Origin: a virus
Taxonomy: Duplodnaviria > Caudoviricetes
Reading direction: 5' to 3' (one strand)
IMG/VR virus record: IMGVR_UViG_3300028805_000056
Location: 32,001 to 96,000 of that record
Length of the DNA: 64,000 nucleotides
Shown: positions 804 to 30,776 of the stretch, in pieces
How the letters are laid out: each line of letters starts with the position of its first letter
Position numbering within the stretch: the stretch's first letter is position 1
Position numbers and translations under genes: made by a program
The notes under the pieces: model-generated
What the model was told of the DNA's origin: nothing
Seen by the model: the letters and a program-made list of their open reading frames with translations, nothing else
Database searches by the model: none

Positions 804-1199
804 TTAGTCTTTATAAAGATTATTTTCTTCTGTAACTTCAATAGCCAAATCTTTGGGAATTAAACCCATAAAATCAAAATGATGTTCAAGCAGCCAATTA
901 AATGCCTCTTCAGTGTGAGGAAATAAACCCGCTTCATAAACATTTAATCTATTGTATTCCTCTTCCTCTTCCTCAGTCATACTTGACATTGGACGGAGAT
1001 AGGGCTTAACACCATATTTTTCTATATGGTTTAATAAATTTATTGTAGAACCGTTTATTCCCAAATTAAGAACTTTATCACAATATGTTCCATTGTACGG
1101 AAATTCTTCTATGTGATATTCTGATAATATACATTTTACTCCATAAGGTAACGCCATACAGAGGTACTTCAGTAATAGTTCTTTATTTTCTGGTGCCAT
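804..1199 (-). CDS. Hypothetical, paralog family A
   Basis: KELLLKYLCMALPYG...KPYLRPMSSMTEEE...HHFDFMGLI motifs shared with 16863, 21518 and 52854. Confidence 0.8.
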   Translation of the reverse strand: MAPENKELLLKYLCMALPYGVKCILSEYHIEEFPYNGTYCDKVLNLGINGSTINLLNHIEKYGVKPYLRPMSSMTEEEEEEYNRLNVYEAGLFPHTEEAFNWLLEHHFDFMGLIPKDLAIEVTEENNLYKD

Positions 1200-11150: not shown

Positions 11151-11173
11151 ATAAAACAGTATAATAAAAAATG

Positions 11174-11809
11174 CGGAGGCTGAGGGATTCGAACCCCCGG
11201 GACGCTGTTAACGCCCGCCGGTTTTCCATTACCACACTATGTTACCATAGCCAAACAAATGTGGACTGTTACTTTTGACTGCTTATGCTTTTACATGGCT
11301 CCTTTCAAAAGCTGTCTTTCGGTAATGTTTGTTGTAGTCTGGGACATATTAGTACCATATTGAAATCCTTGCAAGACAATGCCCTTATTATAGCGCTTTT
11401 AAGCAGATTGTTTTCTCCATATTAGTACAATCATTTCGCGGCATTATACGTCATTTCAACTTAGGCATCTCCTCTATGTTCTCTACACATTTATGAATTA
11501 TAATAGGACTCGAACCTATATTTCCGCCAATTACATCTTTACTCATTTCTGAGCCGATGAGTATATAATTCAATTTAGCTCGGTATTATCCTTACACATT
11601 ATTGGTTAGTGTGTAGATTATAATAAAAGTGCTTATTTATGAGATAAGCATCTGATAACGCTTCCCTTAAATCTACTTGGGGCACTTATCTTACTTTTAT
11701 ATTTCTAAGGACTTCCACCGAATTAGGGAGATTCTACTATGGGATTTCTCGCCATAGCACTCGAATTTGTTTCAAGACCGGTGCAATAGACCAACTCTGC
11801 CAAACCTCC
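11174..11809 (-). tRNA. tRNA-Ser(UGA) interrupted by a group I intron (exons 11774-11809 and 11174-11226)
   Basis: Acceptor GGAGGTT/AGCCTCC, G73, long variable arm; spliced anticodon arm CCGGT-CT-T|GA-AA-ACCGG. Confidence 0.9.
11227..11773 (-). ncRNA. Group I intron (IC3-like), 547 nt, no ORF
   Basis: P1 CUUGAA/UUCGAG with U.G at the splice site; P3 ATCTCC/GGAGAT; P/Q/R/S-like elements AATTCGGTGGAA, AATACCGAGC, GTAGAGAACATA, ATATGTCC; terminal G. Confidence 0.88.
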
Positions 11810-29767: not shown

Positions 29768-29786
29768 ATTTTGTTTTTAAGTTTTG

Positions 29787-29976
29787 TCAACGGGGAAGGA
29801 TTCGAACCCCCATACTTCATTGCCAATACATTGCCCTATAGAATGCTCTTATTGACAATTCCGTGCTGTCTCAGCCCCAACCATGTATTAGGTGTGTCTC
29901 TCCCGTCGTCACGGAATCGTTTCCATCGTCATGGAAACACCTACGATTGTGCTCTTCCTATTTGAGCTACCCGTTG
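29787..29976 (-). ncRNA. 190-nt tRNA-like RNA with a large structured insert replacing the anticodon arm
   Basis: CAACGGG/CCCGTTG-A acceptor; D-arm GCTC/GAGC; T-arm GGGGG-TTCGAAT-CCTTC; ~135-nt internal domain. Confidence 0.7.
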
Positions 29977-29985
29977 TTTATTTTG

Positions 29986-30648
29986 TGCGCAAGTCGGGAC
30001 TCGAACCCGAACGGGCATAATGCCCAGCAGATTTTCCTGCTACTCTATGTTACCATAGCCAAACAATGAGTGATGCTGGACAATAATATTTCTGCATTAT
30101 TTCAGCAGGCACCATTTTAACGTCCTATAGTCTATTGTTTGTTGTAGTCTGGAACATATCATTACCATATTGAAATTCTTCGAAGTAGGAAGCATCAGTT
30201 TTTTTTTAACTTTCTTATATATTCAATCATTATCGAAATAACATGTATTTTCTTACTGAAGTGATATATTACTTTTCTTCCAATTTCAACTTAGGTATCT
30301 CCTCTATGTCCTCTACACATTTATGAGAATCTTTCATCCTTTCTCAAGGGCTATCTTCTTCCATTTTATTGATAGCATCTTCTCAATTTAGCTCGGTATT
30401 ATCCTTACACATTATTGGTTAGTGTTTAATACTTTGGACAAGCAGTCTGATACCAATCACATTTAACTTTCTCTTCTCTATGACTAAGAGTGTGAATCTA
30501 ATATTGAGCCTGATATATTACAACCATATTTTTCTTTGGCAATTAATTAAAAGGACTTCCACCGAATTAGGGAGATTCTACTATGGGATTTCTCGCCATA
30601 GCACTCAATTTAATAAGTCTGCCGCGTCTACCATTCCGCCACAAGCGC
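29986..30648 (-). tRNA. tRNA-Leu(UAA) interrupted by a group I intron (exons 30615-30648 and 29986-30035)
   Basis: Spliced arm GCAGA-CT-T|AA-AA-TCTGC; Leu-type D-arm and variable arm; A73. Confidence 0.88.
30036..30614 (-). ncRNA. Group I intron (IC3-like), 579 nt, no ORF
   Basis: P1 CUUA/UGAG with U.G; core blocks nearly identical to the Ser intron; ends in G. Confidence 0.88.
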
Positions 30649-30673
30649 ATACATTATTTCAAAGAACATTTTG

Positions 30674-30747
30674 TGGGCCTTGAGGGGCTTGAACCCACGA
30701 CCTTCAGATTATGAGTCTGCTGCTCTAACCAACTGAGCTAAAGGCCC
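30674..30747 (-). tRNA. tRNA with CAU anticodon, Ile2 (lysidine)-like
   Basis: GGGCCTT acceptor; CAGA-CT-CAT-AA-TCTG. Confidence 0.85.
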
Positions 30748-30776
30748 TATGATTTACTTTTATTTTTATTTATTTG

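Follow-up and report, generated by a model that had tools for sequence, protein, structure and literature searches.

Two split tRNA genes of a large rumen phage and the retargeted family of endonuclease-less group I introns to which their inserts very probably belong

In the stretch of phage DNA analysed here (hereafter the window: 64,000 nucleotides, bases 32001–96000 of the 148.5-kb IMG/VR virus record IMGVR_UViG_3300028805_000056, of 41% estimated completeness), the genes for tRNA-Leu(UAA) and tRNA-Ser(UGA) are both interrupted after U34, by inserts of 579 and 547 nt. In all likelihood both are group I introns of the type found in bacterial tRNA anticodon loops, enlarged by peripheral inserts, devoid of a homing endonuclease and belonging to one phage-borne family that has been retargeted from site to site. 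The public runs that contain the stretch are bovine and sheep gut metagenomes, and both split genes lie on the minus strand with their introns (Table 1). Removing the inserts in silico leaves a normal tRNA-Leu(UAA) and a normal tRNA-Ser(UGA), as judged by ARAGORN on the spliced products, and the intron option of the same program independently returned the split Leu gene with a 579-nt intron and a Ser(UGA) gene at 11173–11809 with a 547-nt intron. A preliminary description of the window, made from its letters alone, had placed a 579-nt intron at U34 of the Leu gene, the same site as in the Ser gene, and both the ARAGORN call and the spliced tRNA bear this out. These are the sole copies of either tRNA that ARAGORN finds in the 148-kb record. 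Neither insert holds a sizeable open reading frame (ORF), the largest in the sense direction being 32 aa in the Leu intron and 40 aa in the Ser intron, and no homing endonuclease gene was found inside either one or among the ORFs adjoining them.

The class assignment stems mainly from an alignment (A2) of 25 family introns from phage contigs, with the structure drawn on the Leu copy and the splice sites set at the cuts that restore a tRNA, equivalent cuts being decided by guide fit. In the drawn structure P3 encloses P4–P6 while P7 encloses P3' and P8, i.e. the P3/P7 pseudoknot of group I introns. Pairing holds in 92.3% of cells, compared with 81.3% after shuffling and 33–47% when the partner strand is slid, and 26 of the 52 pairs are altered on both sides (116 cells), a level matched by none of 500 shuffles. 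Compensatory changes occur in P2, P4, P6, P7, P8, P9 and the terminal P9.1 hairpin. L2 is a GAAA tetraloop in every member, on a stem with a single bulged C, the loop of the terminal hairpin is GUAA or GCAA (GNRA), and both the U before the 5' splice site (U-1) and the terminal guanosine (omega-G) are present in 25 of 25 introns. Taken together, this supports the prediction that both inserts fold as a full group I core running from P2 to P9.1.

The same alignment reveals how the introns are matched to their targets. In all 25 the exon triplet before the cut pairs with the three bases directly 5' of P2, and five combinations of exon and guide occur (CUU/GAG, UCU/GGA, CAU/GUG, UGU/GCA and ACU/GGU), each with a U.G wobble; in P1 of both window introns GAG faces exon CUU, with the wobble at the splice site. 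Immediately upstream of the guide triplet, one further base forms P10 with the first nucleotide of the 3' exon in 23 of the 25, using all four Watson-Crick types: U for A35 (Leu, Arg after U36, Met and Tyr), C for G35 (Ser), G for C35 (Arg after U34) and A for U34 (Leu after U33). In the Lys(UUU) introns of the wider census, A likewise faces U35. The two window guides differ at just this point, UU-GAG in Leu and UUC-GAG in Ser, so that P10 begins with U:A35 in one and C:G35 in the other. The preliminary description had correctly seen a GAG guide reading CUU in both introns and had overlooked the base preceding it (U in Leu, C in Ser). A subfamily-2 Leu intron in contig L017 (about 900–960, minus strand) carries AAG in place of the GAG guide, giving a U-A pair and not U.G at the splice site; a sequencing variant or an impaired copy could account for this.

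Introns at such sites are already catalogued. The seed alignment gpI.sto of Williams 2020 (bioRxiv 10.1101/2020.01.27.920355) lists the classes Leu.3Ug, Ser.3Ug, Arg.3Ug, Arg.5Ug, Leu.2Ug and Tyr.4Ug, which account for most site classes of the phage family, and the two window introns, both between positions 34 and 35, correspond to Leu.3Ug and Ser.3Ug. In a by-eye, unscored comparison the motifs of the seed rows were found in the same order in our alignment. In the 5' part these are the guide GAG-UGC, P2 with GAAA, GAA-P3-(A/U)AA-UUCGG and CCGA-GC-AA (seed-row forms GAA-P3-AAA-UUCGGGG and CCCGA-GCC-AAG), and in the 3' part GU-GUAGAG-P7-GA-P3'-ACC-UAAG, GGU..GUCCAG-AC(C/U)AC, a GNRA hairpin and the tail GUGG..AAG (seed-row forms GU-GUAGAG-P7-GAC-P3'-CACC-UAAGG, GGUG-AAGG..GUCCAG-ACCAC and a GAAA hairpin). 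Because these motifs match in order by eye, we assign the window inserts to the bacterial tRNA-type group, whose four classical classes are listed as subgroup IC3. With the Leu.3Ug introns (Kuhsel et al. 1990, as cited in PMC3984707; Williams 2020) the window Leu intron has in common the U34↓A35 site (the arrow marks the cut), the CUU/GAG P1, the U.G wobble, omega-G, the lack of an ORF, the GAAA L2 and, block by block, the junction motifs. Unlike them it reaches 579 nt through large P5/P6/P8/P9 inserts, is carried by a phage instead of a bacterium or plastid, has J3/4 UAA and not AAA, and is negative with the Rfam model RF00028. The Ser.3Ug seed row reads CUU↓G ... with a CGAG guide, C facing G35, the same as in the window Ser intron. 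More generally, the phage family uses the same site classes as the bacterial Ser.3Ug, Arg.3Ug, Arg.5Ug, Leu.2Ug and Tyr.4Ug introns (Williams 2020). The bacterial classes are short introns, whereas in the phages all classes fall within one closely related, enlarged family, and for this reason the changes of the guide can be read on an almost constant core; the window introns are two- to three-fold larger than bacterial tRNA introns, the difference lying in their peripheral inserts.

Several other known systems bear comparison. The intron of family member L008 interrupts a CAU tRNA after U36 and has the guide GUG, and the two-tetraloop architecture is common to it and the Azoarcus intron, for which circles are documented (PMC13168695); unlike the Azoarcus intron, the window introns are at U34, are much larger and are known here from sequence alone. 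For Lak megaphages, Devoto et al. (2019, PMC6784885) described 'enigmatic' tRNA introns that Rfam did not classify, no earlier report of phage tRNA introns being known to those authors. Like ours, these are tRNA genes of gut Bacteroidota phages with conserved inserts that Rfam cannot classify, and Devoto et al. assigned them to no class. A 47-nt module of the window Leu P5 insert recurs in Lak genomes, which does not imply that the Lak introns are members of the family. Part of this P5 insert (about 30429–30541, minus strand, ..GCCAAAGAAAAATATGRTTG.AATATATCAGGCT..CTGCTTGTCCAAAGT..) is found at 89% identity in all 15 Lak megaphage records, the Lak copy of the module (L007:1501-1547, Lak-A1 MK250015) lying in a tRNA cluster beside an apparent tRNA 3' half; folding of the Leu P5 insert and its Lak look-alike gave no clear common structure. 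For crAss-like phages, group I introns have been reported in core genes including the primase, and none in tRNAs (Yutin et al. 2021, PMC7886860); those introns were found through intron-encoded endonuclease domains in protein genes, whereas the window copies are ORF-less. The primase intron of crAss-like cr116_1 (MT774389) and its relatives belong to the same family as the window introns, with the target CTT↓AAAAT and the GAG guide of tRNA-Leu. Our literature search found no paper on this phage intron family or on the abundance of its RNA. The kind of intron is known from bacteria and its site classes are published; the element is not a new kind and involves no new mechanism.

To delimit the family we ran three exact-pattern scans of IMG/VR with conserved core motifs, which returned 17, 38 and 98 contigs. 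A census of the 50 introns with a tRNA call gave about 30 in Leu(UAA) after U34, 7 in Arg(UCU) after U36, 3 in Arg(UCU) after U34, 2 each in Ser(UGA) after U34, Lys(UUU) after U34 and Leu(UAA) after U33, and 1 each in Met/Ile2(CAU) after U36 and Tyr(GUA) after U35. Many phages carry several split tRNAs. The DNA primase gene of four crAss-like contigs holds a family intron at CTCTT↓AAAAT, where CTT↓AAAAT is the same 3+5 bases as the tRNA-Leu(UAA) site and is again read by a GAG guide. In cr116_1 (L006, MT774389:18819-19411) the ORFs labelled 'DNA primase' and 'primase/helicase TOPRIM' together form a single gene interrupted by the intron, and contigs L018, L019 and L024 are further split-primase cases. 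The preliminary description had proposed other tRNAs with C32-U33-U34 as targets, and in other phages Arg(UCU) and Lys(UUU) are indeed split after U34 by GAG-guided relatives. In the window phage three CUU tRNAs, Thr(UGU), Arg(UCU) and Lys(UUU), stay uninterrupted, and a CUU target is therefore not sufficient. An exact-pattern scan of 185,579 prokaryote genomes produced one match, a 42-kb contig of a Clostridium metagenome-assembled genome in which a similarly split tRNA-Leu stands among further tRNA genes and which probably derives from a phage; the scan shows only that the exact pattern is rare outside virus collections. Against GenBank phages, blastn gave short matches only, to the crAss-like primase intron and to Lak phages.

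As to the kinship of the two window introns, a 54-nt block is identical between them (30553–30606 in Leu, 11709–11762 in Ser; two matches in 0 of 100 shuffles). Since introns from other phages, in Arg, Leu (site 2) and further contexts, agree with it at 51 of its 54 positions, the block reflects conservation across the family and is not the mark of a recent copy. Further shared blocks are P5'-P4'-P6, J6/7-P7-P3'-P8, J8/7-P7'-P9 and the GGCTATGGTAACATAG hairpin, and the P5, P6, P8 and P9 inserts are divergent; the pairwise alignment thus reproduces the 54-nt identity, near-identical core blocks and differing P5/P6/P8/P9 inserts of the preliminary description. In a tree of the core (223 strictly aligned columns, 25 tips, guide and inserts excluded, recombination-free model) the window Leu and Ser introns form one group with L009_Arg5 (support 88/89), and the two are mutual nearest neighbours (path 0.076); forcing them into a single clade is not rejected (p-AU 0.59). 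There is thus moderate support, on core columns, for the window introns being each other's closest relatives. This tree on strictly aligned blocks supersedes an identity ranking on looser 'core' columns, in which L030_Leu3 is closer overall to the Leu copy (84%) than is the Ser copy (78%). Both window introns also have the rarer P4 variant UUCGG/CCGAG, most relatives having AACGG/CCGUG.

Over the whole tree the host site switches 13 times among the 25 tips. L034_Leu joins L044_Arg (95/89) and L027_Arg joins L047_Tyr (95/95), a single clade of subfamily-1 Leu introns is rejected (p-AU 0.003), as is one of the Ser introns of the window and of relative G002 (p-AU 0.0006), and a clade of the window Leu intron with that of relative G003 is not (p-AU 0.24). 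The periphery is a mosaic: in the Leu copy the P9 insert resembles that of L030_Leu3 and P6 that of L047_Tyr4, in the Ser copy the P5 insert resembles that of L033_Arg5, and the Leu introns of relatives G001 and G003, in spite of their identical exons, have P5, P6 and P9 modules unlike those of the window Leu intron. Given the mosaic inserts and the rejected Ser clade, the history includes modular recombination or gene conversion, and not one hop alone. What survives of the preliminary description is a single lineage retargeted among tRNAs, and what falls is the simple single hop; the sister relationship that it had expected of the two introns is recovered on the core and lost in the periphery, where the inserts group with different external introns. 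The resident cores may be alike by descent of one from the other or by homogenisation, and either would leave the same signal.

Some family members depart from the typical anatomy. In many members the P6/P9 inserts contain T-arm-like hairpins (5-bp stem, loop UUCGAxU; window 11503–11519, minus strand, and L029, L056, L008 and L039), which could be structural T-loop modules or captured pieces of tRNA, and in one intron an entire tRNA-like unit is present (L012:2078-2182, 34 bits with the Rfam tRNA model). In L031:12330-13200 and in L036, L048, L050, L051 and L032, family ribozyme cores extend from P2 to P7' without the guide G, P9, the terminal hairpin or omega-G; they are preceded by a conserved element (GGTCAGTGGTGGAGGACTG..CAGCCCCTAACAA) and followed, 4–5 nt after P7', by a tRNA-like gene that ARAGORN does not call. 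These may represent a domesticated or free-standing form. Finally, in L046, L047 (second copy), L057 and L009:5322 the 3' exon is a normal tRNA 3' half and the 5' side offers an acceptor-strand match only, or no recognisable 5' half; such cases may be degenerate or rearranged split tRNAs.

Occupied and empty versions of both sites exist in related phages. A complete relative of 348,671 bp (G001) has the Leu intron, in exons identical to those of the window, and 1.1 kb downstream of it an uninterrupted tRNA-Ser(UGA) that reads through GGTCTT↓GAAAACC. This intact gene is 94% identical to the spliced Ser tRNA of the window, the differences being compensatory stem pairs. In another relative (G002, 401 kb) it is the Ser gene that holds an intron, together with an uninterrupted, more distant tRNA-Leu(UAA). 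The Ser site is thus empty in the first and the Leu site in the second, so both are polymorphic among large rumen phages, which implies gain or precise loss. A pattern search for the intronless Ser junction with the window's own anticodon stem had no match in five relatives; the empty Ser allele of G001, the stem of which differs from the window by a compensatory pair, was found by ARAGORN. The tRNA-Leu(UAA) exons are identical in three phage genomes, those of the window, G001 and G003.

RNA of the family is abundant. For the region 29900–30750 we compared one DNA run with three rumen metatranscriptome runs, each from a different study; the RNA data are assembled contigs that combine many phages at 90% likeness. 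In RNA, word depths reach 10^4 to 2x10^5 over the conserved core blocks (30136–30606) and 80–540 over stretches specific to the window Leu copy, against 0–36 for the exons and flanks, while the DNA run is flat at about 10–100. Two RNA contigs match the Leu copy exactly, over 270 and 133 nt. Several RNA contigs join the 3' end of an intron to its 5' end with a few letters between that fit the P1 loops of relatives; among the matches listed, no such joint occurs in the DNA run. Junctions of ligated exons are likewise lacking among the listed matches to RNA contigs, which is uninformative because mature tRNAs are short and assemble poorly. Our reading is that excised intron RNA, partly in circular form, accumulates for the family taken together, which may be among the most abundant unannotated RNAs in rumen metatranscriptome data.

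The best reading of the window itself is that it encodes two working, or recently working, introns that would restore tRNA-Leu(UAA) and tRNA-Ser(UGA) through the standard two-step pathway; both their catalysis and the route by which they moved are what we infer from the features described above. By the mechanism standard for the class, the precursor would fold so that the guide pairs with exon C32-U33-U34 to form P1 with its U34.G wobble, and a free guanosine bound in P7 would attack after U34. The terminal G would then occupy the guanosine site, P10 would form between the first bases of the 3' exon and the two or three guide bases preceding GAG, and joining of the exons would yield a normal anticodon loop and release an intron able to circularise. 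Spread among tRNA genes and to the primase gene would have kept the catalytic core and rewritten only a few guide bases, with peripheral domains exchanged between copies by recombination; the likeness of the window cores would then reflect a move from Leu to Ser, or the reverse, at the shared CUU site, or later homogenisation. Reverse splicing, the textbook route for transposition without an endonuclease (PMC3984707), would fit the guide-target rule and the CTT↓AAAAT target shared with the primase; much of the pattern is also accounted for by gene conversion together with allele exchange among co-infecting phages.

A number of points weigh against this interpretation. With the Rfam model Intron_gpI (RF00028) the Leu intron had no match at E<=10 (711-nt region alone), the Ser intron obtained only 11.1 bits (E 0.26, in its 5' part, with a gathering score of 50 bits), ten related loci gave nothing, and neither the window nor the whole record yielded a usable group I match when scanned. 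None of the RF00028 seed sequences is bacterial (Williams 2020), and we treat the miss as a limit of the model and not as evidence against the class. P3 is invariant in our alignment and offers no covariation, either for or against, and one P7 pair is A.C in the Ser copy. The regularity of U-1 and guide is partly selected by the choice of splice sites, but this selection does not produce the P10 pattern or the variety among triplets. The core tree assumes an absence of recombination that the mosaic periphery contradicts, the pooled RNA contigs show neither ligated exons nor activity of this particular Leu copy, and introns this long (579 and 547 nt), with their AU-rich inserts, may fold only with the help of a chaperone or another protein.

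Among the alternatives, we take most seriously, while leaning away from it, a history with no direct hop between Leu and Ser, in which the two introns arrived separately by homologous recombination with intron-bearing tRNA alleles of co-infecting phages and their cores are alike through conservation and gene conversion. The wide distribution of the 51 block positions, the peripheral domains matching different external introns, the rejected clade of Ser introns next to the tolerated Leu clade with G003, and the higher overall identity of L030_Leu3 to the Leu copy all speak for it; the strict core columns, which make the window introns nearest neighbours, and their common rarer P4 point the other way, and gene conversion and a direct hop give the same signal. 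It seems unlikely that the inserts are true group I relatives that do not self-splice and instead depend on a phage or host protein, such as a chaperone or a maturase-like factor, or splice in certain conditions only, gating the supply of both tRNAs during infection. Their size relative to bacterial tRNA introns, the long AU-rich inserts, the T-arm-like hairpins that could bind tRNA-handling proteins and the status of the two genes as the only ones of their kind in the record would suit such a role, but the full catalytic core, guide and both tetraloops are kept under covariation, excised RNA and circle-like junctions are abundant in the RNA samples, and no candidate factor gene adjoins either intron.

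We think it quite improbable, though somewhat less remote than the readings that follow, that the family is an actively mobile, endonuclease-free ribozyme that reverse-splices by means of a programmable 5–6-nt guide (P10 plus P1) and whose excised, partly circular RNAs, among the most abundant of rumen phage RNAs, have a job of their own; were this true, that job might be exerted through the T-arm-like or other peripheral modules, or in timing the supply of tRNAs for A-ending codons. The suggestion, raised in the preliminary description, that an interrupted anticodon loop shields the precursor or the gene from anticodon nucleases or tRNA-directed defences is very unlikely to hold: the commonness of the family in phage tRNA genes, often several to a phage, is circumstantial support, whereas the mature spliced tRNA exposes a normal anticodon loop like any other, close relatives do well with uninterrupted genes, the same intron also sits in a primase gene, and the distribution fits a selfish element at tolerated sites. 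Least credible of all is that the inserts are decayed relics and both tRNA genes pseudogenes, as the missing Rfam match and two U.U mismatches in the Leu acceptor stem might suggest, given that the helices, guide, U-1 and omega-G are all preserved, with covariation across the family, that the Leu exons are identical in three phage genomes and that intron RNA stands well above the level of the flanks.

Retaining the interpretation as retargeted group I introns, the family amounts to a natural retargeting series, in which a near-constant core occupies eight tRNA sites and one protein gene with the P1/P10 guide bases rewritten for each target, and for which occupied and empty alleles are available in related complete phage genomes. 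As donor and recipient sequences are defined, the spread of endonuclease-free group I introns to new sites becomes directly testable. Large gut and rumen phages are under-annotated for Leu(UAA), Ser(UGA), Arg(UCU) and Lys(UUU) tRNAs because Rfam and default tRNA finders miss these genes, and the intron RNA is a very abundant, unlabelled part of rumen metatranscriptomes. The value of the case lies mainly in this series and in the annotation blind spot; it is a well-documented addition to a known kind.

Table 1. Positions in the window of the two split tRNA genes and of the predicted intron elements.
Feature	Position	Strand	Basis or remark
tRNA-Leu(UAA), whole split gene	29986-30648	minus	cut after U34
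tRNA-Leu(UAA) 5' exon, 34 nt, end C32-U33-U34 (...GCAGA-CUU)	30615-30648	minus	spliced product is tRNA-Leu(taa), ARAGORN
Leu intron, 579 nt, ORF-less, group I (very probable)	30036-30614	minus	tRNA restoration and ARAGORN intron option
tRNA-Leu(UAA) 3' exon, 50 nt, start A35 (AAAA-UCUGC)	29986-30035	minus	ARAGORN
Leu intron internal guide	30603-30608	minus	UU (P10, with A35-A36), GAG (P1, with C32-U33-U34), U with A31
Leu intron P1	30618-30615 with 30606-30603	minus	helix mapping
Leu intron P2 (GAAA loop)	30601-30596 with 30586-30581	minus	
Leu intron P3	30576-30571 with 30302-30297	minus	
Leu intron P4	30566-30561 with 30397-30392	minus	
Leu intron P5	30556-30553 with 30404-30401	minus	
Leu intron P6	30385-30380 with 30329-30324	minus	
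Leu intron P7	30311-30306 with 30157-30152	minus	
Leu intron P8	30289-30283 with 30176-30170	minus	
Leu intron P9	30141-30136 with 30065-30060	minus	
Leu intron P9.1 hairpin (GUAA loop)	30058-30045	minus	
Leu intron omega-G	30036	minus	
tRNA-Ser(UGA), whole split gene	11172-11809	minus	cut after U34
tRNA-Ser(UGA) 5' exon, 36 nt	11774-11809	minus	ARAGORN; intronless G001 ortholog 94% identical
Ser intron, 547 nt, ORF-less, group I (very probable)	11227-11773	minus	ARAGORN and helix mapping
tRNA-Ser(UGA) 3' exon, 55 nt, start G35	11172-11226	minus	ARAGORN
Ser intron guide UUC-GAG	11765-11760	minus	
Ser intron P2	11757-11752 with 11742-11737	minus	
Ser intron P3	11732-11727 with 11472-11467	minus	
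Ser intron P4	11722-11717 with 11584-11579	minus	
Ser intron P5	11712-11709 with 11591-11588	minus	
Ser intron P6	11572-11567 with 11499-11494	minus	
Ser intron P7	11481-11476 with 11347-11342	minus	
Ser intron P8	11459-11453 with 11366-11360	minus	
Ser intron P9	11331-11326 with 11257-11252	minus	
Ser intron P9.1 hairpin	11250-11237	minus	
Ser intron omega-G	11227	minus	

The ORFs around the introns encode a PIF1-like helicase, an FGase-family protein, a NUDIX protein, an acyl-carrier-like protein and a muramidase, or are matchless. In the acceptor stem of tRNA-Leu(UAA) the two U.U mismatches are neighbours, at positions 5-68 and 6-67 (30642–30643 with 29990–29991, minus strand), and they are identical in relatives G001 and G003. 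A tRNA-like gene some 190 nt long (29786–29976, minus strand) follows the Leu gene after ten bases; the ARAGORN intron option calls it tRNA-Pro(agg) with a 106-nt insert at position 33, and it has zero group I core motifs. We also came across a match to the Rfam abiF RNA (L015:3509-3546, minus strand; 50.1 bits against a gathering score of 37), situated roughly 260 nt from the split tRNA-Leu in the tRNA cluster on a crAss-like contig.

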